A stretch of 62,665 bases of DNA, the filler included, from an uncultured virus (IMG/VR IMGVR_UViG_2061766007_001450) (lineage: Duplodnaviria; Heunggongvirae; Uroviricota; Caudoviricetes). It is 5 parts of one record of this genome, joined end to end, with 100 filler letters (N's around TTAATTAATTAA, not from the genome) between each part and the next. Parts side by side here need not be neighbours in the genome. Positions count along the whole stretch, not along the records: positions 1,775 to 30,689 come from IMGVR_UViG_2061766007_001450; 4 more parts are not named here. One strand, given 5' to 3'. Under the pieces are notes generated by a model that made no database searches, was not told the DNA's origin, and saw only the letters and a program-made list of their open reading frames with translations. Both the position numbers and the translations under genes were made by a program. Of this stretch, positions 8,685-51,142 are shown piece after piece (position 1 is the stretch's first letter; each line of letters begins with the position of its first letter).

Positions 8685-8856
8685 CACAAACGATGTTGAC
8701 GTTATAATCATAGAGCGGGACGATAGAACGGTGGCACAAANNNNNNNNNNTACAAACAAAGGCAAAAATGTTAACATTGCAGCATAACGCCCCCGATGTT
8801 GACGTTATAATCATAGAGCGGGACGATAGGACGGTGGCACAAAACGCGCCGTTCAT

Positions 8857-8872
8857 TGTTTCGCGTGAAACA
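8857..8872. promoter_or_regulatory. parS-like site upstream of the ParB-N gene
   Basis: TGTTTCGCGTGAAACA, 16 nt before the ATG at 8889. Confidence 0.75.
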
Positions 8873-8888
8873 ACAATATTGATTTACG

Positions 8889-9470
8889 ATGGAAATAAAG
8901 ACTATCAAGATAAAGGACTTGGCGACGAATGACGGACAGATTGAGGGGCTCCCCAAAAATCCGCGGCAAATTCGCGACCACCGATACGAAAAACTTAAAA
9001 AGAGCATCGAGGACGCGCCCGAAATGCTCCAACTCCGTGAATTACTTGTTTACCCCCACGGCGGCAAATTCGTGATTGTCGGCGGTAATATGCGTTACAG
9101 AGCCTGCAAAGAAATCGGCTACAAAGAATTGCCGTGCAAAGTCCTTGATGCTGAAACGCCTGTTGAAAAGTTGCGCCAATACGCCATCAAGGATAATGAA
9201 AATTTTGGCGAGTACGATTGGGACGTAGTGGCAAACGAGTGGGACACGTCCGAGTTGGAAGATTGGGGCGTGGAATTGCCGACGGATTGGGGCGCGGAGT
9301 TGGAGGAAAAAGATTATTCTGCAAAGGAATTAGACCCTGAGGAATTTGGCGACAAAGTGGAAATAAAATTGCATTTCGACCAAGAGGAATGGCAATTCGT
9401 TAACAATGCTTTGTCGAAGATAGACGCAAATAAAGAAAAAGCGATTTTAAAACTTTTAAAATATGAGTAG
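8889..9470 (+). CDS. ParB N-terminal (ParB/Srx fold) domain protein without evident HTH
   Basis: NPRQI, LKKSI, IVGGNMRYRA (GxxR box), DNENFG, acidic C-terminus. Confidence 0.85.
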   Translation: MEIKTIKIKDLATNDGQIEGLPKNPRQIRDHRYEKLKKSIEDAPEMLQLRELLVYPHGGKFVIVGGNMRYRACKEIGYKELPCKVLDAETPVEKLRQYAIKDNENFGEYDWDVVANEWDTSELEDWGVELPTDWGAELEEKDYSAKELDPEEFGDKVEIKLHFDQEEWQFVNNALSKIDANKEKAILKLLKYE

Positions 9471-10110
9471 TTTTGATTTCGACACAATAAAAGATTTTGA
9501 CAATCATATAAATAATTCGATTATGGGGTATGACTTGCTTCATAATCTAATTATCAATTTGTCAGAGTTTTTTATACAGAAAAACAGCACCTTGCCAATA
9601 GTGGATTTAGGTTGCACATCAGGCAAATTGTTGCAGATGATAAAAGAGCGGTGGCCGTTTTTGAACTGCAAAGGATACGATAAAACAGACCACAATTTTT
9701 TGCAGACAAACGACATCGAATTAATAAGAGCCGACATTACAAATATTGATTTTCCCAAAAGTCAAATTTTTTACTCAATATTCACGCTGCAATTTATTGA
9801 GATTGGCAAACGACAAGATATTTTAAAGCGCATTTGCGAAAGTCTTTATCCAAACGGTGTATTTTTCTTTTGTGAAAAAGAGTATGCACAAAACGCCAAA
9901 TTTCAAGAGGTTTACACATTTGCGAATTATTCAAACAAACAAAAATCATTTTCGCACACTGAAATCCTCGAAAAAGAAAAAGACATCAGGACTTTAATGT
10001 CTCCGTTGAATGAGTACGAAAACAAAAAAATGCTTAAAACGGCAGGTTTTAAACATATAGACATATTTTTTAAATCGTTGAATTTTACAGGATATATTTG
10101 TCAAAAATGA
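9463..10110 (+). CDS. CmoA-like SAM-dependent enzyme (putative carboxy-SAM synthase)
   Basis: FD-HI--SI-GY, VDLGCTSG, FTLQFI, R--IL--I---L--NG-F---EK, L--AGF, FKSLNF match the CmoA layout. Confidence 0.7.
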   Translation: MSSFDFDTIKDFDNHINNSIMGYDLLHNLIINLSEFFIQKNSTLPIVDLGCTSGKLLQMIKERWPFLNCKGYDKTDHNFLQTNDIELIRADITNIDFPKSQIFYSIFTLQFIEIGKRQDILKRICESLYPNGVFFFCEKEYAQNAKFQEVYTFANYSNKQKSFSHTEILEKEKDIRTLMSPLNEYENKKMLKTAGFKHIDIFFKSLNFTGYICQK

Positions 10111-11141
10111 CAATAACAGAGAATATATTTCCGCTTGAATGGTCTTTAAAAGACCCGCTAAAAGTCGAATATCACGGCAAAAAAGTGTTTGGCACGTTTG
10201 TTTGTGGTGGTGGCTCTACAATGGGCTATAAATTAGCGGGTTACGAACATTTGGGGGGGGTAGAGTTTACGGAGCATTACAGCCGTATCTACAAAAAAAA
10301 CCACAACCCAAAATATTTCTATATGGAAGATATGAGGGATTTTGTAAATCGTGCCGACTTGCCCGAGGAACTTTACCATCTTGATTTGTTGGACGGTTCG
10401 CCACCGTGTGCGGCATTTTCGACAGCGGGCAAGCGCGAGGACATTTGGGGAAAGCAATCAACGTATGAAAACAAAGTGCAACAAAAGGACGATTTACCAT
10501 TTGTGTATTGCGCTTTGATAAACAAACTTGTGCCAAAAGTCTTTTTGCTTGAAAACGTTTCGGGACTATCGAAAGGCAACGGCAAGGTTTATATCAAAAA
10601 AATTATTCAGAGCGTTGCGACAAATTACGATTGTCAGGTCTTTTTGTTGTATGCGGCATCAATGGGCATACCGCAATTAAGGCAAAGAACATTTATAATT
10701 GGCAAGCGTAAGGAATTTAATTTGCCGAAATTGTCTTTGGATTTTCGATGCCCCCAAACTACATTTGCGGTAACAAAGAAGTTTTGGAACGATGCAGAAT
10801 TAAACAAGGATTGTTGGCTAACTAAACCGCGAATGATTAAAGAGTATGACGAAACACCTATCGGACATTCTCACCCGAAACATTTTAGCCGCGTGAAATT
10901 ATCCGAGTTTAAGCCCATAAACACGGTATTGGCGACATCGGCAAGCGAAATATCGCCGCTATTTCACCCATATCAAAGGCGCGTTCTTAATCTTGAAGAG
11001 GTGCGAATGTGCTGCACATTTCCGAAAGATTATGACTTTTTGGACTTGCCGCCCAATAATGTTATGGGGCGCAGCGTTTTGCCGGTAATGATGGCAAACA
11101 TCAGCCACCAAATTTATTTGCAGTGGCTAAGCAAAATTTAA
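10098..11141 (+). CDS. DNA cytosine-C5 methyltransferase family (possible carboxymethyltransferase); probable start 10107
   Basis: GSPPC, ENV, Q-R-R, FP-DY; motif X reads GRSV. Confidence 0.9.
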   Translation: MSKMTITENIFPLEWSLKDPLKVEYHGKKVFGTFVCGGGSTMGYKLAGYEHLGGVEFTEHYSRIYKKNHNPKYFYMEDMRDFVNRADLPEELYHLDLLDGSPPCAAFSTAGKREDIWGKQSTYENKVQQKDDLPFVYCALINKLVPKVFLLENVSGLSKGNGKVYIKKIIQSVATNYDCQVFLLYAASMGIPQLRQRTFIIGKRKEFNLPKLSLDFRCPQTTFAVTKKFWNDAELNKDCWLTKPRMIKEYDETPIGHSHPKHFSRVKLSEFKPINTVLATSASEISPLFHPYQRRVLNLEEVRMCCTFPKDYDFLDLPPNNVMGRSVLPVMMANISHQIYLQWLSKI

Positions 11142-11157
11142 TGTTTCACGTGTAACG
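11142..11157. promoter_or_regulatory. parS-like site abutting the methyltransferase stop
   Basis: TGTTTCACGTGTAACG directly after TAA. Confidence 0.7.
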
Positions 11158-11185
11158 ACACAAAAGACACAACAATAAAAAAGCA

Positions 11186-11536
11186 ATGAGGAACACGGCG
11201 CAGAAAAAGGAGCAATTTTTGACGGTCTATGCTAAACGCCTTTGCAATGTTACAGAGACTTGCAGGGCTATTGGCATAGAGCGCAAAACCTTTTACCGTT
11301 GGTACAATGGCGATGCACGTTTTAAAAAAGCCGTTGACGATACATCGGAAGTGCGCATTGACTTTGCGGAAAACGCCCTCAATCTAAAAATCCAATCAGG
11401 CGACACGGCGGCGATAATCTTTTTTCTCAAAACAAAAGGCAAGCATCGTGGATATGTTGAGCGTGTGGAAAATGCCGTATCGGTACAAGTAGAGCAACCG
11501 CTATTTGGTGACTATGACGAAAGTAAGGAGTGTTGN
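11186..11536 (+). CDS. Terminase small subunit-like HTH protein (116 aa)
   Basis: NVTETCRAIGIERKTFYRW, AAIIFFLKTKGKHRGYVER; overlaps the TerL start; near-identical to 44327-44677. Confidence 0.75.
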
Positions 11537-19076: not shown

Positions 19077-19187
19077 TTTCTTTGTGTTTAGTTAAGTGTT
19101 TTTCTTTATTTGTATGTACAAATTTACAATTATTATTTTTATTGTGCAAATTTTANNNNNNNNNNTGCGGTCGTATATACAAAGCCG

Positions 19188-19562
19188 TCAACACTCCTTA
19201 CTTTCGTCATAGTCACCAAATAGCGGTTGCTCCGTCTTGATTGTAACATCTGTTTTCAAAACATTCTCGCCCAAAATCTCTCTTATTAATTCAATGGCTT
19301 TAATATCGCCGTTGGCGGCTTTTGCTATAAGTTTCACCATTGATGCCTCAATGAATGTCATTCCGTCCTCGCCCGTGGTCGGATTGGTCAAGGGATTGCC
19401 GTTTTTGTCTTTCATTTGCAAATGCAAAAAGCGCAACAAATTTTCTTTCATTGTGCGCTTTTTGCGTCTGGACTTGCCGCTATTGATGCCGCCTTTGCGT
19501 CCAAATTCTCTTGCTTCGCTCTTGCTTCGTTGGCTTGTCGGTATTAAATTATCGTCATTCAT
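19188..19562 (-). CDS. Alternative terminase small subunit-like protein (124 aa)
   Basis: NLIP...GRKGGINSG-SRR, KA--GD-KA; between the methyltransferase and the TerL start. Confidence 0.7.
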   Translation of the reverse strand: MNDDNLIPTSQRSKSEAREFGRKGGINSGKSRRKKRTMKENLLRFLHLQMKDKNGNPLTNPTTGEDGMTFIEASMVKLIAKAANGDIKAIELIREILGENVLKTDVTIKTEQPLFGDYDESKEC

Positions 19563-19583
19563 AGCGTTGTTATTTTATTGCGG

Positions 19584-19599
19584 TGTTTCGCGTGAAACA
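19584..19599. promoter_or_regulatory. parS-like site abutting the methyltransferase stop
   Basis: TGTTTCGCGTGAAACA. Confidence 0.7.
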
Positions 19600-20664
19600 T
19601 TAAATTTTGCTTAGCCACTGCAAATAAATTTGGTGGGCAATTTGCGCCGTCATAATTGGCGGCACGGACATTCCCAAAAAGAATTGTAATTTTTGCCCCC
19701 CCCAATTATAATCCATTGGGAATGTACTTAATTTTAACAATTCATTATTATTTAATCCTCTTTTGTACAAAGGGTGATACAAGCAACTTCCGGCTGCCAA
19801 AGTGTTGGGGACATCATTCATATTCAACCTTACACTATTAAAGCGGTTGCCTTTGGGATGATGCTTGCTGATTGGCTCGCCTTGTTTGCACAAATCATAA
19901 TATGGAATGTCGCACGGTGCAATTTTGTTTTCGCCGCCAATATTACCATCATCAATATCTTTAAATAAAATAGGCGGCTCTGAAAAATTCAGAACCAATT
20001 TTGGCAAACGAAATTCTTTTTTCAATCCAATTACAAAAACACGTTCCCTTTTTTGCGGAACGCCCATCTGCGCGGCGTTTAGCAAAAAGACTTGCACGTT
20101 ATATCCTATTGTATCAAGATGTTTAACAATTTTTTTTAGATAAACTTTGCCGTTTCCTTTTGCTAACCCGGAAACATTTTCAAGCCAACAAACTTTTGGC
20201 TTTAATTTTTTTATCGTGTCGCAATACACAAACACTAAATCATCAAGTCTTTGTTTTTTCTGACCTTCCGCAAATTGCTTTTCTTTGCCCCACGCAGCCT
20301 CTCGACTTCCGGCTGTTGAAAATGTAGAACACGGCGGCGAACCGTCCAAAATGTCTAATTGATACAACTCTTCGGGCAAATCAGTTCTTTCGTTAAAATC
20401 TCTAATATCCTCTATGAATAGATATTTTGGGTGATGATTTATTTTATATACTTGTGCTACTTTTGGGTCTAATTCGACACCGCCTAAATGGTCATAACCG
20501 GCTAATTTATATCCCATAGACGAACCACCACCACAAATAAAAGTGCCAAATACTTTGCATTTGTGCTGTTGTATATTATTTGATGGATAGCCGTCTGACA
20601 ATCGCCATATATAAGGGAATGTATGACCGTTAAATTTTTGCGTATTTTTCTCTGTCATAGCCAA
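19600..20664 (-). CDS. DNA cytosine-C5 methyltransferase
   Basis: GSPPC, ENV, QKRER; motif X GMSV. Confidence 0.9.
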   Translation of the reverse strand: MAMTEKNTQKFNGHTFPYIWRLSDGYPSNNIQQHKCKVFGTFICGGGSSMGYKLAGYDHLGGVELDPKVAQVYKINHHPKYLFIEDIRDFNERTDLPEELYQLDILDGSPPCSTFSTAGSREAAWGKEKQFAEGQKKQRLDDLVFVYCDTIKKLKPKVCWLENVSGLAKGNGKVYLKKIVKHLDTIGYNVQVFLLNAAQMGVPQKRERVFVIGLKKEFRLPKLVLNFSEPPILFKDIDDGNIGGENKIAPCDIPYYDLCKQGEPISKHHPKGNRFNSVRLNMNDVPNTLAAGSCLYHPLYKRGLNNNELLKLSTFPMDYNWGGQKLQFFLGMSVPPIMTAQIAHQIYLQWLSKI

Positions 20665-21018
20665 GCATTTTTAATATTTTACCTTCTTTGTCATCGCCTA
20701 ATTGTTGCTGTACAAATGCGTGTTCCTCAATGGTAAATTTCAATTTCATTTCGATTTTATCATCGAAATCAGAAACATCAATTTCTTTGCCGTCTTTCAA
20801 ATTTGGGTCGCCATCCAACTCTGCGCCCCAATCGGTCGGCAACTCCACGCCCCAATCTTCCATTTCTGCCGTGTCCCATTCGTTTGCGACAATATCCCAA
20901 TCATACTCACCAAAATTTTCATTGTCTTTGATTGCATATTGGCGCAATTTTTCAACCGGCGTTTCTGTATCAAGCACCTTGCACGGCAATTCTTTGTAGC
21001 CGATTTCTTTGCAGGCTC
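20630..21018 (-). CDS. ParB-N protein, C-terminal fragment
   Basis: ACKEIGYKELPCKVLD...DNENFG; overlaps the methyltransferase start with no CmoA-like gene between. Confidence 0.8.
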
Positions 21019-21029
21019 NNNNNNNNNNC

Positions 21030-21373
21030 TGCGGGAAGTAACTACAAAATACAGCCTTGTTTTCTTTGTACAAATCCTCAATGCCTACTGAAAATAATAA
21101 TTCTTTCGGCATATTGCCCATCATACTTTCTATCGCCGTAATAATCAGTATGCCGTGCCATTGCCGCAAAGTGATAATTTCAATTTGTTTTGTAGGCACT
21201 CCATAGGCATCAATATCAATTATATCAAATTTTGACAAATCAAGCGTTGGCAAGTATTTAAGATTGTCGCCTTGTAAGGCGGTGGGATTTTTGCCTTTCT
21301 CTTTTTCGATTGATACAATTTTTATTATTTTGTCTGAACGTCTTTTTACTTCTTGCCATAAAAGACCATAACC
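21030..21373 (-). CDS. Putative methyltransferase fragment (DxDAYG motif)
   Basis: GYGLLW...QGDNLKYL...FDIIDIDAYGVP; both ends in gaps. Confidence 0.55.
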
Positions 21374-21627: not shown

Positions 21628-22022
21628 AGTTCGTCGCCCCAATCTGTCGGCAACTCCACGCCCCAATCTTCCATTTCTGCCGTGTCCCAACTATTAGCCA
21701 CTTCGTCCCAATCATACTCGCCAAAGTTTTCATTATCTTTGATTGCGTATTGACGCAATTTTTCAACCGGCGTTTCTGCATCAAGCACCTTGCAAGGCAA
21801 TTCCTTATACCCAAGTTCCTTNNNNNNNNNNNNNNNNNNNNNNNNNNNNNNNNNNNNNNNNNNNNNNNNNNNNNNAAGTTGGAGCATTTCGGGCGCGTCC
21901 TCGATGCTTTTCTTTAACTTTTCGTATCGGTGGTCGCGAATTTGACGCGGATTTTTGGGGAGTCCCTCAATCTGTCCGTCATTCGTCGCCAAGTCCTTTA
22001 TCTTGATAGTCTTTATTTCCAT
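21628..22022 (-). CDS. ParB-N protein, gapped variant
   Basis: N-terminus identical to 8889; another start copy at 22132-22278; parS-like site at 22042. Confidence 0.8.
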
Positions 22023-28015: not shown

Positions 28016-28561
28016 ATGATACTCAAAATAATTTTGGCGGCACTTTGTGCAAACTTACTTTACACCAACGCGAATTTGATGTTAGCGGCATCGTCAGAGT
28101 TGGCAACGTGGCAATCGTGGATGATGGTTGTTTTTGCTATCACTTACAGCCTTATATCGACACTATCCATATTCAAGATGCAGAGCCTTTTTGCAATCGT
28201 CTGTTTTGCGATATTGGACGGCGCGGCGGTTTATCTTCACTTTGCCGATCACGGCGCAAACTTCAAAATGATTGTGGCGGTGTATTTCGGCATTTACACN
28301 NNNNNNNNNTGTTTTTGCTGTAACATACAGCCTTATATCCACGTTATCAATCTTTAAAATGCAGAGTCTTTTTGCAATCGTCTGTTTTGCGATATTGGAC
28401 GGCACGGCGGTGTTTCTACATTTTGCCGACCACGGCGCAAACTTCAAAATGATTGTGGCGGTGTATTTCGGCATTTACACAGCTTACACCTTGATTGTCG
28501 CCTTTGCCATCAAGCGCAATGAAGATGCAGAGGATAACGGCAACGAGGTTGAGGGACACGA
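28016..28561 (+). CDS. Multi-TM protein (gapped pieces)
   Basis: Homolog of 37514-38206. Confidence 0.65.
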
Positions 28562-28598
28562 NNNNNNNNNNAAAAACTTTACGACTTATGAATTTAAA

Positions 28599-29249
28599 AT
28601 GAAAGTTTACGGATATTTAAGGGTCTCTACGGACGACCAAGACGAAAACAGCCAAAAGCGCGGTGTTGACGAATTTGCGTCGAAAAACGGCTTGAAAATA
28701 GATGAGTACGTGATAGACCACGGACTGTCAGGTGCTAAGGAATTCAAAGACCGTGTCATCGGCAAACTCATAAAGAAGTTGCAGAAGGGCGACACCGTTA
28801 TTGCGTCGGAAATTTCGCGCATCGGAAGGCGACTTATCCTCGTTCTTGACTTTATCAAGATTTGCACGGAAAAGGGTGTCAACTTCTTTACGGTGAAAGA
28901 CCGCTATAAAATTGAGGACACGTTGCAGAGCAAAGTAATTCTTACTGTTATGGGATTGTGTGCGGAAATAGAGCGTGATTTGATAAGGCAGCGCACTTGT
29001 GAAGGCTTGGCAAGGGTAAGAGCAACAGGGAAAAAATTGGGTAGGGCGTATGGCGTAAGATGCCGTGTTAATCCCAAATGCGAGGCAATGTTTATTGAAA
29101 TAAATGCAATGATAGCCGGCGGAGTAGAAAAAAGCGTAATCGCGGAAAAAGTTGGCGTATCAAAAGCAACATTATATAGGTATCTTGTGTACAAAGGACT
29201 TTTTACAACAAAAAGCAAAAAGTTTCGGGAGACAGGTATATTTTACTGA
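28599..29249 (+). CDS. Small serine recombinase (resolvase/invertase family)
   Basis: YGYLRVST, D-G-SG, EISRIGR, AEIERDLIRQRT-EGL, GKKLGR, C-terminal HTH VSKATLYRY. Confidence 0.92.
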   Translation: MKVYGYLRVSTDDQDENSQKRGVDEFASKNGLKIDEYVIDHGLSGAKEFKDRVIGKLIKKLQKGDTVIASEISRIGRRLILVLDFIKICTEKGVNFFTVKDRYKIEDTLQSKVILTVMGLCAEIERDLIRQRTCEGLARVRATGKKLGRAYGVRCRVNPKCEAMFIEINAMIAGGVEKSVIAEKVGVSKATLYRYLVYKGLFTTKSKKFRETGIFY

Positions 29250-42629: not shown

Positions 42630-44349
42630 ACAATGACAGTTGACGGCGGAATGTTGTTTGCTTTCAACATCGCCGCAATATCGCGGTTTGTCATTCCTGA
42701 TTGATAGCATAATTGATTGATGATAATGCCGCCGTTGTATCGCCAAAGTTCTATTGCCGTTGTCGGGTCGTTGGTAAATCCAAAGTCGATGCCGATACCA
42801 AGGCGCACAGCGTCAGGCGGGATTTTGTCAATCAGTTTCCAATTACTGAAAATGCAACCTTGCACGCTGCCGACTTCTCCGCGTCCGTACACTTTCCACC
42901 AATTTGCCCAATAAGGCGATTTTATGTTTTTTTCGTTGAATAGGTCGGGCGCGTCGGGATTGAAAAACGCTTTTTCTTTTGCCTTTTCGATTTCCTTGAC
43001 GACAATAGGGCTTAATGCCTCGTTATCTTTGTAGGTCAAAACAAGTGTCTCCACGTCTGCATCGTTGGCAAGTTCAGTATGTACCCAAAACTCGGACGTG
43101 GGGTTAAAATCAAGCCATATTACCTTTTTCGTNNNNNNNNNNATTTTTACACTAATTGCGCCGCAAAACTCCGCGTGAATGTTTCTGCTGATACCTCGCC
43201 AATACGGTCGTTGCTATGTATCGCAGTGCGTCCATCGANNNNNNNNNNNNNNNNNNNNNNNNNNNNNNNNNNNNNNNNNNNNNNNNNNNNNNNNNNNNNN
43301 NNNNNNNNNNNNNNNNNNNNNNNNNNNNNNNNNNNNNNNNNNNNNNNNNNNNNNNNNNNNNNNNNNNNNNNNNNNNNNNNNNNNNNNNNNNNNNNNNNNN
43401 NNNNNNNNNNNAATGACAGTTGACGGCGGTATGTTGTTTGCTTTCAACATCGCCGCAATGTCGCGGTTTGTCATTCCCGACTGGTAACACAATTGATTGA
43501 TGATAATGCCGCCGTTGTATCGCCACANNNNNNNNNNTGGTGAATCCAAAGTCGATGCCGATACCAAGGCGCACCGCGTCAGGCGGGATTTTGTCAATCA
43601 GTTTCCAATTTGAAAAAATGCAACCTTGAACGCTGCCTACTTCGCCACGTCCGTACACTTTCCACCAATTAGCCCAATAAGGCGACTTGATGTTTTTTTC
43701 GTTGAATAGGTCGGGCGCGTCGGGATTGAAAAACGCTTTTTCTTTTGCTTTTTCGATTTCCTTTACGACGATAGGGCTTAATGCCTCGTTGTCTTTGTAT
43801 GTCAAAACAAGTGTTTCCGCATCTGCATCGTTGGCAAGTTCAGTATGTACCCAAAACTCGGACGTGGGATTAAAGTCAAGCCATATTACTTTTTTTGTAC
43901 GGATTGCAAGTTGATAATATGTTTCAAAATCAACGGCGTTACATTCNNNNNNNNNNGGCGGAGAAAAACTCAATGAAACTGCCGTTTGTGAATGTATAGG
44001 TAAAATTTGATTNNNNNNNNNNCGCACTGAAAAACTCAATGAAACTGCCGTTTGTGAATGTATAGGTAAAATTCGACTTATTCCAATGGTCATCAATGTA
44101 GCGTCCGGTCGCTTGCATAATCTTTAAAAAATCCCTCATCGCGCCTTTGCGTAGGTGGGGTATGCTCTCGGATACGATGGATATTTCAAAGCGTTTGCGA
44201 CTTGCAACGTCAATCAAGATTGGAATGATGCCAAAGGTCTTGCCCGCCGAAGTTCCGCCCGGCACGATGCGAACCCTCGCCGACATTTGCCGCAATTTCT
44301 CTATCGCGGTCGTATATACAAAGCCGTCAACACTCTTTACTTTCGTCAT
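42630..44349 (-). CDS. terL: Terminase large subunit, redundant gapped pieces including the N-terminus
   Basis: Walker A GGTSAGKT, NGSFIEF, stop at 43152; extra fragment 42630-43132. Confidence 0.85.
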
Positions 44350-44677
44350 AATCACCAAATAGCGGTTGCTCTACTTGCACCGATACGGCATTTTCCACGC
44401 GCTCAACATATCCACGATGCTTGCCTTTTGTTTTGAGAAAAAAGATTATCGCCGCCGTGTCGCCTGATTGTATTTTTAGATTGAGGGCGTTTTCAACAAA
44501 GTCAATGCGTACTTCCGATGTATCGTCAACGGCTTTTTTAAAACGTGCATCGCCATTGTACCAACGGTAAAAGGTTTTGCGCTCTATGCCAATTGCCCTG
44601 CAAGTTTCCGTAACATTGCAAAGGCGTTTGGCATAGACCGTCAAAAATTGCTCCTTTTTCTGCGCCGTGTTCCTCAT
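44327..44677 (-). CDS. Terminase small subunit-like HTH protein
   Basis: Near-identical to 11186-11536. Confidence 0.75.
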   Translation of the reverse strand: MRNTAQKKEQFLTVYAKRLCNVTETCRAIGIERKTFYRWYNGDARFKKAVDDTSEVRIDFVENALNLKIQSGDTAAIIFFLKTKGKHRGYVERVENAVSVQVEQPLFGDYDESKEC

Positions 44678-44705
44678 CGCTTTTTTATTGTTGTGTCTTT
44701 TGTGT

Positions 44706-44721
44706 CGTTACACGTGAAACA
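44706..44721. promoter_or_regulatory. parS-like site abutting the methyltransferase stop
   Basis: CGTTACACGTGAAACA. Confidence 0.7.
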
Positions 44722-45768
44722 TTAAATTTTGCTTAGCCACTGCAAATAAATTTGGTGGGCAATTTGCGCCGTCATAATTGGCGGCACTGACATTCCAACA
44801 TACCACATTATTTTGCCGTCGCATTGATAATCTTGCGGAAAACTACCGGCACACATTATTTCGTAGTCTGTCATTTTCCTCGGATATTCATATACAACGT
44901 GTTCGCGCGATGCTATTATTGTGTAACATACCTTATTGCCTTGTTGAATTGCGCAATTAAAACTACTGTGCCGTCGTTCCTCTCTCCAAATGATATCGCC
45001 AAGACTGCTATCGCCACGTTGGCGCAATTTCCAAAATTTATACTCAAAATCCGTCAATTCTACTTTATCGCCTGTATCTTGTTGAAAATCTTTAAATAAT
45101 ATTGGCGGCTCGTTGAAGTTAAGATTTAATTTTGGTAAATCAAAATCTTTCCTCAATCCAATTATAAAAACACGTTCCCTTTTTTGAGGAACGCCCATTG
45201 TGGCGGCATTGAGTAAAAACCCTTGTGGACGATAACCTATTTTTTCAAGTTTTTGCACAATCTTTTTGTAATAAACTTTGCCATTACCTTTAACAAGCCC
45301 ACTTACATTTTCTAATAAACAGACTTTCGGCATAAGTTTTTTTATTGTATCGCAATACACAAAAACAAGGTCATCTAATGTTTGTACTTGTTGCCCTTCT
45401 TTAAATTGTTTTCTTTTCCCCCAAGCATCTTCACGGCTTCCTGCTGTGGAAAACGTGGAGCAAGGCGGCGAACCATCAAGCAAATCAAGGTCGTATAAGT
45501 CTGATGGCAAATCTTGTCTTTCGTTGAATTGCCTTATATCTTCCACATAAAGCAATTGAGGGTGGAGATTTCGTTTGTAATTTGCCGCTACTTTCGGGTC
45601 TATCTCTACCCCCCCCAAATGATTAAATCCCGCTAATTTATATCCCATTGACGAACCGCCGCCGCAAATGAATGTGCCGAATGATTTACAACCGTGGTAT
45701 TCTATGCCGGGCGCGGGATAACCATCCGTTAATCTCCATTTGTAAGGGAATTTATGCGTTTGCGTCAT
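44722..45768 (-). CDS. DNA cytosine-C5 methyltransferase
   Basis: GSPPC, ENV, QKRER; motif X GMSV. Confidence 0.9.
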   Translation of the reverse strand: MTQTHKFPYKWRLTDGYPAPGIEYHGCKSFGTFICGGGSSMGYKLAGFNHLGGVEIDPKVAANYKRNLHPQLLYVEDIRQFNERQDLPSDLYDLDLLDGSPPCSTFSTAGSREDAWGKRKQFKEGQQVQTLDDLVFVYCDTIKKLMPKVCLLENVSGLVKGNGKVYYKKIVQKLEKIGYRPQGFLLNAATMGVPQKRERVFIIGLRKDFDLPKLNLNFNEPPILFKDFQQDTGDKVELTDFEYKFWKLRQRGDSSLGDIIWREERRHSSFNCAIQQGNKVCYTIIASREHVVYEYPRKMTDYEIMCAGSFPQDYQCDGKIMWYVGMSVPPIMTAQIAHQIYLQWLSKI

Positions 45769-46337
45769 AATCCAATATCTTTAACAATGCCATTTCTTTG
45801 TTGGCGTTTACTTTCTGCAATTTTGCATTAATAAATTGCCATTCCTCTATTGAGAATTGAAATTTTATCTCTACTTTGTCGCCGATTTCTGCATCTTCAA
45901 TTTCTTTATTAGAGTTGTTTATTTCCTCGCCGTCCAACTCTGCGCCCCAATCGGTCGGCAACTCCACGCCCCAATCTTCCATNNNNNNNNNNCACTACGT
46001 CCCAATCGTACTCGCCAAAATTTTCATTGTCTTTGATGGCGTATTGGCGCAACTTTTCAACCGGTGTTTCTGCATCAAGCACCTTGCACGGCAATTCTTT
46101 GTAGCCGATTTCTTTGCAGGCTCTGTAACGCATATTGCCGCCGATAATCACGAACTTGCCGCCGTCTATTGGATAGACAAGCAGCTCGCGCAATTTCAGC
46201 ATCTCGGGCGCGTCGGTGATGCTCTTTTTCAAAAGCTCATACCGACCGTCCTTGATTTGTCGGGGGTTTTTGGGCAAACCGTCAACTTGCCCGTTGTTGG
46301 TCTGCAACAGCTTTATGTCAATTTCTTTCGTCTCCAT
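45752..46337 (-). CDS. ParB-N domain protein (one gap)
   Basis: NPRQI, IIGGNMRYRA, DNENFG; parS-like site at 46353. Confidence 0.85.
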
Positions 46338-50323: not shown

Positions 50324-51142
50324 TTACATTGGCAAGTCTGCGTCCTCGTCGAAATAGTCGGCGGGGCTGCATTGCGCCCTTCCGTTAATCTGCCACACCG
50401 CGACCAAAAGCGGGTTACTTGTAAGCATCGCCAGGGCTTGCACATCTTTTGTGGTGCAATGCGAATTAAAGAACGGTTGCGCGGGATCAACGAATGTATG
50501 ATGGGGACTAATGCGGGGGTCTGAAATGAATATCTCGCGGACTTCGTTGTAGTCTGCATTGAAACGGGTTGCCATATCCGCGAATTGTGCGCAAAACACC
50601 TCCTTAAAAGCGATGGCGCAATTTTCCATATATTTCGCCAATTCCGCATTGATGCTGGTTGTTTTGATAAAGCGGTGCGAGCCGTTGTGGCAATGCTGCA
50701 ATATAGTTTGCACCGCTTTTGTCCACATCTTGTCGCCGCCCAATACGGTGAAGTCAAAGTTGAACAAATCGCGACGGCTGTGGATTGTGCAGCCGTACCA
50801 AACGGGGCTGCATACAATCGGCATGAATGGGAACTTTGCCCTTAGTTTGTCAGTAGTGCCAGGCAACACCGTTGTACATATCACAAAAACGCCGTCATAC
50901 GCCCGCCTTTCCAAATTCATTTGTATTGCGGTCTCCACGTTGGAGGTGTCGCAAGGGTTTTCGCCGTTTATTTCGGCGGGGACGCAAATAAAAATTGCGT
51001 CGTATTCGCTGTATTGGGGTGTCCCTTTGATGTAGCCTTCGTATTTGATGTCGGCAACGTCTGGGCTTATGGGTTCCAACTCTGTTGCAAGTTGCTGTCC
51101 GATTTCGCCGTGTCCGACAATTAGTGTCCTTTGTTTACTCAT
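50324..51142 (-). CDS. UDP-glucose/GDP-mannose dehydrogenase-like protein, short form (272 aa)
   Basis: LIVGHGEIG, AELAKYMEN, DPRI, SHCTTKD. Confidence 0.8.
   Translation of the reverse strand: MSKQRTLIVGHGEIGQQLATELEPISPDVADIKYEGYIKGTPQYSEYDAIFICVPAEINGENPCDTSNVETAIQMNLERRAYDGVFVICTTVLPGTTDKLRAKFPFMPIVCSPVWYGCTIHSRRDLFNFDFTVLGGDKMWTKAVQTILQHCHNGSHRFIKTTSINAELAKYMENCAIAFKEVFCAQFADMATRFNADYNEVREIFISDPRISPHHTFVDPAQPFFNSHCTTKDVQALAMLTSNPLLVAVWQINGRAQCSPADYFDEDADLPM

Follow-up and report, generated by a model that had tools for sequence, protein, structure and literature searches.

Introduction

A pair of phage enzymes, CmoA and CmoX, that makes 5-carboxymethylcytosine (5cxmC) has been described from Synechococcus phage S-B43 (Yang et al., Nat Commun 2025, PMC12783734). 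According to that paper, SpCmoA makes carboxy-S-adenosylmethionine (Cx-SAM) with a kcat about tenfold above that of the E. coli enzyme, SpCmoX writes 5cxmC at GC sites and accepts only Cx-SAM as its cofactor, and a third enzyme, CmoY, adds glycine. Here, we analyse locus A, a cassette comprising a ParB-like gene, a CmoA-like gene and a C5 cytosine transferase gene. It lies at positions 8889 to 11141 of a stretch of 62,665 nucleotides (nt), filler included, from an uncultured virus of the Caudoviricetes (IMGVR_UViG_2061766007_001450 of IMG/VR); this whole stretch is referred to below as the window. An initial annotation of the window had proposed locus A as a candidate carboxymethylcytosine system, and had mentioned a phage CmoA/CmoX pair with that product, which is the pair now in print.

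A single residue is central to cofactor choice in the described enzymes. In SpCmoX, R350 contacts the carboxymethyl group, and the R350N variant is dead with both cofactors (PMC12783734). A basic residue in place of the Asn of motif X lets C5 methyltransferases use Cx-SAM, as in M.MpeI N374K and M.MedI N377K (PMC12015181; PMC12783734). Yang et al. gathered 5,615 candidate CmoX sequences with SPPC and R350 from IMG/VR, UniProt and MGnify, and the neighbours of these candidates included 4,257 CmoA, 2,251 ligase and 1,660 ParBc genes (PMC12783734). In E. coli CmoA, it is Arg199 that binds the carboxylate of Cx-SAM, through a salt bridge (Byrne et al., PMC3663124).

Results

Gene order and coupling of locus A

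The three genes of locus A lie on the + strand within one gap-free segment of 2,785 nt (8751–11535). The first (8889–9470) encodes a 193-residue protein with a ParB N-terminal domain (ParB-N; phrog_17622, E 4e-57; PF02195, E 4.7e-05, just below the cut-off). The second (9463–10110) encodes a 215-residue homologue of CmoA-type Cx-SAM synthases, as judged by TIGR00740, phrog_4752 and its likeness to SpCmoA. The third (10107–11141) encodes a CmoX-type C5 cytosine transferase, here transferase A, with the motifs SPPC, ENV and QxRxR and with GRSV in motif X; its ATG at 10107 (344 residues) is a likelier start than the TTG at 10098 (347 residues). The ParB and CmoA genes overlap by 8 nt, and the stop codon of CmoA overlaps the ATG of the transferase gene as ATGA, so that the three genes are translationally coupled. 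Directly downstream (11186–11535, + strand) is a gene for a small terminase-like helix-turn-helix protein, with a weak HTH_Tnp_1_2 match; the copy of this gene beside variant C, described below, matches phrog_309/4044. The arrangement is that of the initial annotation, which had seen a CmoA-like open reading frame (ORF) between ParB-N and the transferase, and GRSV in A only, with GMSV in two further transferase variants of the window, B and C. The best explanation for locus A is a three-gene, translationally coupled cassette (ParB-N, CmoA and CmoX), just upstream of the terminase genes, with a predicted role in DNA modification.

The window is a patchwork of mixed strains with 65 gaps (runs of N, 4,745 N in total), and the adjacency of the three genes could be an artefact of a chimeric metagenome scaffold. 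However, the segment that carries them is free of gaps, and dozens of related loci share their order. It is also found in a 43,954-nt contig from a public metagenome-assembled genome (MAG; contig G001:C116, locus L165), which matches locus A at 94.4% identity across 2,792 nt and encodes ParB, CmoA and transferase proteins 94–98% identical to those of locus A. The ends of this contig repeat, which makes it a complete circle of ~43.8 kb. A 2,172-nt contig of another study (run X4) covers 9276–11446 and spans both the CmoA and the transferase genes, and the four closest cassettes keep the order ParB–CmoA–CmoX–terminase. The recurrence of this order in independent contigs and in relatives refutes a chimera, to which we give practically no weight.

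The CmoA-like protein

Comparison with CmoA by hidden Markov model and by structure, as suggested in the initial annotation, gave a match to TIGR00740 (CmoA) over the full length of the protein (E 1.4e-26, 93.6 bits) and, from the predicted model, a CmoA fold. The protein also matched phrog_4752 (E 1.6e-47) and the E. coli CmoA structures 4iwn and 4gek (E 2e-17). Of 50,697 phage records, the one that it matched best was SpCmoA of S-B43 (36.8% identity, E 4e-34). An AlphaFold model from 31 homologues, with a predicted local distance difference test (pLDDT) score of 90.3, superposed best in Foldseek on the CmoA structures 4iwn, 4gek and 1im8 (template-modelling score, TMq, of 0.84–0.88). The residues that contact S-adenosylmethionine (SAM), equivalent to Tyr39, Asp62, Gly64, Asp89 and Asp117, are kept: Tyr23, Asp48 and Gly50 are invariant, with Asp present in YDKT and ADIT.

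A scan of genome contigs returned two loci in all, the complete relative L165 and L166. The second (L166:5001–5645) is a CmoA-like gene, 41% identical to that of the window, on a 512-kb contig of an archaeal MAG; no homologue of a C5 methyltransferase was found within 5 kb on either side of it.

The transferase

Transferase A matched PF00145 over residues 37–339 (E 8.4e-35), and its best match in the PDB was SpCmoX of S-B43 (8yf3, E 2.9e-27). In a four-way alignment with B, C and SpCmoX, to which it is 54%, 50% and 32% identical, respectively, the GRSV of A aligned with the GRMV of SpCmoX. This places its Arg, the motif X residue noted in the initial annotation, at the R350 position. SPPC, ENV and QxRxR were invariant across the four sequences; GSPPCAAFS in A aligned with GSPPCSAFS in SpCmoX, whose SPPC is S95–C98, and the columns of S101, P102, P103 and C104 are invariant. 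Transferase A thus combines a C5 domain, SPPC, Arg at R350 and an adjacent CmoA gene, the features by which CmoX sequences are recognized, and the cassette has every sequence feature used by Yang et al. (PMC12783734).

A scan of viral contigs with the single protein found no close relative of transferase A, and an alignment-based scan did find relatives. Motif X was the sole alignment column by which the two types, 5 sequences with Arg and 79 with Met in its place (Arg types and Met types), could be told apart completely. In most of the Arg types, the loop that follows motif IV differed at several positions.

Linkage of Arg and CmoA among relatives

The initial annotation had suggested following GRSV and CmoA across phages, and the two proved to be linked, with Arg types accompanied by CmoA in all three of the samples that we drew. 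Sample (a) consisted of the 80 best relatives of transferase A in viral contigs. All three of its Arg types (L005, L006 and L054) had CmoA immediately upstream, and CmoA was present nowhere in the loci of its 77 Met types, 69 of which have at least 650 nt of upstream sequence. In 40 of these 77, ParB ends directly at the transferase. For sample (b), 80 viral loci were seeded with CmoA. A C5 methyltransferase was present in 72, and every one with a readable motif X (69 of 69) had Arg there; three transferases were cut by the contig end, and eight loci had no C5 methyltransferase within their short flanks. Sample (c) consisted of 80 metagenome relatives of the Arg clade, 12 of them truncated before motif X. 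CmoA was present with all 33 of its Arg types and absent from 34 of its 35 Met types (27 of the 35 with at least 650 nt upstream).

Related cassettes were present in marine, freshwater and human-gut contigs. In two Arg-type loci (L180 and L207), CmoA and the transferase are separated by ~1 kb instead of overlapping, and no match to SpCmoY was found there.

Evidence for and against carboxymethylation

Homology, motifs, gene coupling and co-occurrence all agree with the initial proposal, at the level of sequence, and locus A is very probably a Cx-SAM/5cxmC DNA-modification system. Several observations weigh against this. The chemistry of the pair is predicted from homology. The score of the CmoA-like protein, 93.6 bits, is below the NCBI equivalog cut-off for TIGR00740 (193.3), and the positions of E. 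coli Arg199 and Asn132 are occupied by Glu and Ile. By Foldseek E-value, CysG (9fcy, TMq 0.83), a genuine methyltransferase, equals CmoA. With SpCmoX as the tblastn query, A scored 119 bits, B 156 and C 128; transferase A is therefore no closer overall to SpCmoX than the Met types are, and the case is carried by one residue and the gene context. One Met-type locus, L221, is the only one with CmoA nearby: in the region 811–2059, the transferase gene is succeeded by an ORF of 33 codons, after which comes the beginning of a CmoA gene, 35 codons long, at the contig end. This CmoA may precede a second, Arg-type transferase beyond that end. The closest complete relative, L165, has nine G (G9, L165:5793–5801) at a site where A has eight, so that its transferase frame is broken; the G9 may be an assembly error. 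Finally, the host assignment is indirect, and the MAG to which L165 belongs carries the label Eubacteriales.

Could the CmoA-like protein be an ordinary methyltransferase with the CmoA/CysG fold, acting on small molecules or RNA, and could transferase A be a normal SAM-dependent enzyme that makes 5-methylcytosine (5mC) and has Arg by chance? Some SAM-using C5 methyltransferases are described as having Arg near motif X. The sub-threshold score, the loss of Arg199 and Asn132, and CysG/BelI methyltransferases (TMq 0.80–0.83) with Foldseek E-values on a par with CmoA would all fit such an explanation. However, the validated SpCmoA, at 115.6 bits, does not reach the TIGR00740 cut-off either, which implies that the cut-off describes cellular CmoA and not activity, and it has Glu for R199 and Leu for N132. 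Deviations that are shared with an active enzyme are probably a trait of the phage type of CmoA, and need not be evidence against function. The initial annotation had read these positions correctly, as KE and IFTLQF, and the caveat that it attached to them loses most of its weight. R176, four residues after the Glu (E172), is Arg in at least 90% of the 31 family members, and may take over the carboxylate role of E. coli R199. The TM-scores for CmoA are also higher than those for CysG. An ordinary methyltransferase with a chance Arg leaves unexplained the linkage of Arg to CmoA, which has no exception in 3 + 69 + 33 loci and recurs in no fewer than two distinct lineages within the Met-type family. 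We therefore regard this explanation as very improbable.

A different role for CmoA has also to be considered, in which it mainly drains host SAM as a counter-defence, like phage SAM lyases, or alters host tRNA, with DNA carboxymethylation secondary. SAM depletion by phage CmoA is raised as an open question in the Discussion of Yang et al. (PMC12783734), and the cellular role of CmoA is in the synthesis of uridine 5-oxyacetic acid (cmo5U) in tRNA. Against this, CmoA never occurred without an Arg-type transferase in samples (b) and (c) where the flank was long enough, and its gene is translationally coupled to that of the transferase. Neither the window nor the complete relative showed a CmoB-like gene, and draining SAM would not by itself need the Arg. 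A main role in SAM depletion or tRNA modification is thus very improbable as well, and a CmoA that supplies Cx-SAM to transferase A is preferred.

Strain variants in the window

Self-comparison and PHROG annotation (66 ORFs) showed that the window consists of pieces of several related siphophage genotypes strung together. About three copies each, in both orientations, were found for single-stranded DNA-binding protein (SSB), phrog_3193, ParB, the C5 methyltransferase, the small and large terminase subunits and endolysin. Therefore, A, B and C are strain alleles from co-assembled phages, not paralogues within one genome; their sequences are as first described. The transferase genes of variants B (19600–20664) and C (44722–45768) are both on the − strand, have GMSV in motif X, lack CmoA and abut ParB. 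They lie in gap-free segments (19166–21018 for B and 44023–45982 for C), and since ParB abuts the transferase in both, there is no room for a CmoA gene. A tblastn search of the window found no further CmoA, C5 methyltransferase or SpCmoY-like sequence.

Variants B and C presumably represent the usual Met-type enzyme of the family, using plain SAM, and their product would be 5mC. We know of no assay of any Met-type enzyme of this family or of its product. The natural paired switch that had been proposed between A and its relatives is not a clean one-residue change, because roughly half of the residues of A, the target-recognition region among them, are not those of B and C. By analogy with R350N in SpCmoX, replacing R325, the motif X Arg of A, with Met may simply kill the enzyme.

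Among the ParB pieces of a further variant, between the ParB fragments 20814–21018 and 21635–21821, is an open fragment of 115 residues (21029–21373, − strand) with a class-I methyltransferase motif of the DIDAYG type. Its TRM-like Pfam match is weak (E 0.009, below the cut-off), and it may be part of a ParB-associated transferase of a non-C5 type.

Evolution of Arg and Met types

The relationships of the two types were analysed with a quick IQ-TREE run (85 sequences) and with FastTree (92 sequences), rooted by choice on the SpCmoX group. The methyltransferase of Staphylococcus phage F1 was left out of FastTree, and of the alignment-column test above, as its motif X is unreadable and its branch very long. 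In both trees, the Arg clade of the window lay inside a Met-type family of Bacteroidota phages, with the SpCmoX group outside. The clade comprised A, L005 and L006, joined by L085 and L086 in FastTree (support 100 and 1.0), on a long stem (0.8–1.1), and its nearest neighbours were B, C, L016 and L025. A second Arg type, L054, which is accompanied by a CmoY-like ligase, lay elsewhere in the family. The tblastn scores of SpCmoX, higher for B and C than for A, accord with this placement. Thus the combination of Arg and CmoA appears at least twice within the Met-type family. One reading, which we hold to be doubtful, is that Arg arose or was regained within this family without descent from the SpCmoX lineage, and on every occasion along with CmoA; with a root that is not established, these trees do not give the direction of the change between Met and Arg.

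The Met type is found in cultured Bacteroidota phages, namely Bacteroides LoVEphage, Cellulophaga phi18:3 and Flavobacterium FPSV-S2. No cultured phage with this Arg clade was found in the phage collection, where the best identity to transferase A was 39%. A Met-type sister family goes without mention in the Results and Discussion of the paper on S-B43 (PMC12783734).

Poly-G tracts and possible cassette exchange

The window contains just three G/C runs of six or more, all of them 8-mers, and one lies inside each transferase gene; these genes make up ~5% of its non-N sequence. In A, the G8 tract (10253–10260, + strand) covers the codons Leu-Gly-Gly-Val just after motif I. The tract of C, a C8 in the + strand (45609–45616) with the gene on the − strand, is at the same site just after motif I. 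In B, it is again a C8 in the + strand (19696–19703, gene on the − strand), at a different site just before motif X. The 80 viral relatives contained six G/C runs of at least eight, four of them in transferase genes, as 9-mers at four other codons, and two within 120 nt upstream, with none elsewhere in ~486 kb. This pattern resembles that of slipped-strand contingency loci, and the transferase genes may be phase variable. Run X3 contains an almost identical variant in which the tract at the site of A is interrupted by a pair of synonymous G>A substitutions. No change in length at G8 was seen in the contigs of four runs, contigs being a form of data that drops rare variants, and a degenerate DNA pattern around the tract had no match in metagenome contigs. 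In the contigs of the four runs, summed depth differed between the 5′ part of ParB and the CmoA–CmoX part, but such a depth is no measure of copy number. A limited literature search, which does not show absence, found bacterial phasevarion papers only and no phase-variable C5 methyltransferase of a phage.

Locus A and variant C share 97.0% identical DNA over 11105–11535 and 44758–44328, respectively, a stretch that takes in the final 37 nt of the transferase gene together with the gene for the small terminase-like protein. Outside it, identity drops to 66% in the transferase bodies and to 74% in the ParB genes. The higher identity downstream suggests a recombination joint where the transferase gene is conserved at its 3′ end (…IYLQWLSKI). 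It is conceivable, if doubtful, that the space between ParB and the terminase is a contingency slot in this lineage of rumen phages, at which strains would swap Met-type 5mC cassettes for cassettes of CmoA with an Arg-type 5cxmC enzyme, and where poly-G slippage would switch the transferases on and off. If this were true, genomes without modification, with 5mC and with 5cxmC would coexist in one phage population.

Product, genome setting and host

No amide ligase (CmoY) was found among the 66 ORFs by PHROG, in a scan of the gapped window that was limited to ORFs of at least 100–110 residues. Nor was one present in the four closest cassettes or among the 48 ORFs of the complete relative; PF00733 matches in the assembly that contains L165 lie on other contigs only. 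As no such ligase is present, 5cxmC is probably the final product of locus A.

Locus A was present in runs of 12 studies, and the runs with at least half of its words were all labelled bovine gut, bovine metagenome or metagenome. The 48 ORFs of the complete relative include, by Pfam, terminase, SSB, ERF, an N6/N4 methylase, two glycosyltransferases and a tape-measure protein. The portal protein is 61–64% identical to those of Bacteroides, Parabacteroides, Alistipes and Elizabethkingia phages, and one CmoA homologue carries the name Parabacteroides merdae. The phage of locus A is a siphophage of ~44 kb from the bovine gut, and its host probably belongs to the Bacteroidota. In a control genome, that of Bacteroides thetaiotaomicron, TIGR00740 had no match. 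If the host is a Bacteroidales species without a supply of Cx-SAM, this would explain why the phage has a synthase of its own.

Three further features of these genomes were noted. A truncated-looking UDP-glucose dehydrogenase-like gene accompanies the N6/N4 DNA methylase and the two glycosyltransferases (L171:11441–14112 in the complete relative; 34–780 and 50324–51142 in the window), and a role in surface conversion or in DNA modification is possible for this group. The N6/N4 methylase gene of the complete relative itself holds a G/C 8-mer. A serine recombinase or DNA invertase gene is found at 28272–29249 of the window (+ strand; phrog_125, E 3.8e-44).

Discussion

The mechanism that we propose for locus A has three steps. 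By homology, its CmoA would turn SAM and prephenate into Cx-SAM. The Cys of SPPC would attack C6 of the target cytosine, and the C5 transferase would move the carboxymethyl group to C5, with the motif X Arg holding the extra carboxylate of Cx-SAM. The phage DNA would then carry 5cxmC at the target sites of the transferase, which could shield it from host restriction.

What does this locus contribute? It places the published CmoA–CmoX system in small siphophages of the bovine gut that probably infect Bacteroidota, and does so in a minimal version that lacks the ligase and whose last product would be 5cxmC itself. The Met- and Arg-type cassettes, allelic at one slot, are natural material with which to ask which residues beyond the Arg set the choice of cofactor. 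Since the system has been published, along with its Arg signature and the ParB neighbour, there is little to be gained in practice. The additions are modest: an Arg clade nested in a Met-type family, the lack of CmoY, the co-assembled strains, and the G/C 8-mers in all three transferase genes.

Comparison with known systems

The closest described system is the CmoA–CmoX(–CmoY) system of S-B43. As in that phage, the CmoA gene of locus A adjoins a C5 methyltransferase gene with SPPC and Arg, and is predicted to serve the same chemistry, Cx-SAM and then 5cxmC. A ParBc neighbour like that of locus A is also described by Yang et al., for 1,660 contigs. The two systems differ in several ways. Identity is only ~37% for CmoA and 28–32% for CmoX. 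Locus A has no CmoY, and so probably makes no glycine amide. Its genes overlap directly, whereas in S-B43 the ligase separates them. The target-recognition region of A differs from that of SpCmoX, so the GC specificity of SpCmoX is not transferable to it. The phages differ too, S-B43 having a genome of 214 kb and the phage of locus A one of ~44 kb, with a host group that is probably Bacteroidota, in the bovine gut. Unlike the SpCmoX lineage, the Arg clade of A lies inside the Met-type family in the trees.

The engineered enzymes M.MpeI N374K and M.MedI N377K are laboratory mutants of CG-specific Mycoplasma methyltransferases, and they still use SAM, whereas SpCmoX, the one natural CmoX with an assay, takes only Cx-SAM. 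They also differ in the residue that is replaced: this is Asn in the engineered enzymes, whereas the alternative natural residue in the family of the window is Met.

With E. coli CmoA (4GEK, 4IWN), the CmoA-like protein shares the fold, homology over its full length and the SAM-contacting residues. It differs from the E. coli CmoA/CmoB system, which makes cmo5U34 in tRNA, in having 25% identity, Glu for Arg199 with a conserved Arg four residues on, and Ile for Asn132. No CmoB partner was seen, and the predicted consumer of Cx-SAM is a DNA transferase.

The Met-type (GMSVPP) C5 methyltransferases of Bacteroidota phages, to which B and C belong, are of the same family as transferase A, share its conserved C-terminus and often have ParB upstream. 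They differ from A in having Met for Arg and no CmoA. Taken together, these comparisons identify locus A as a further member of the published CmoA–CmoX system, not as a new system.

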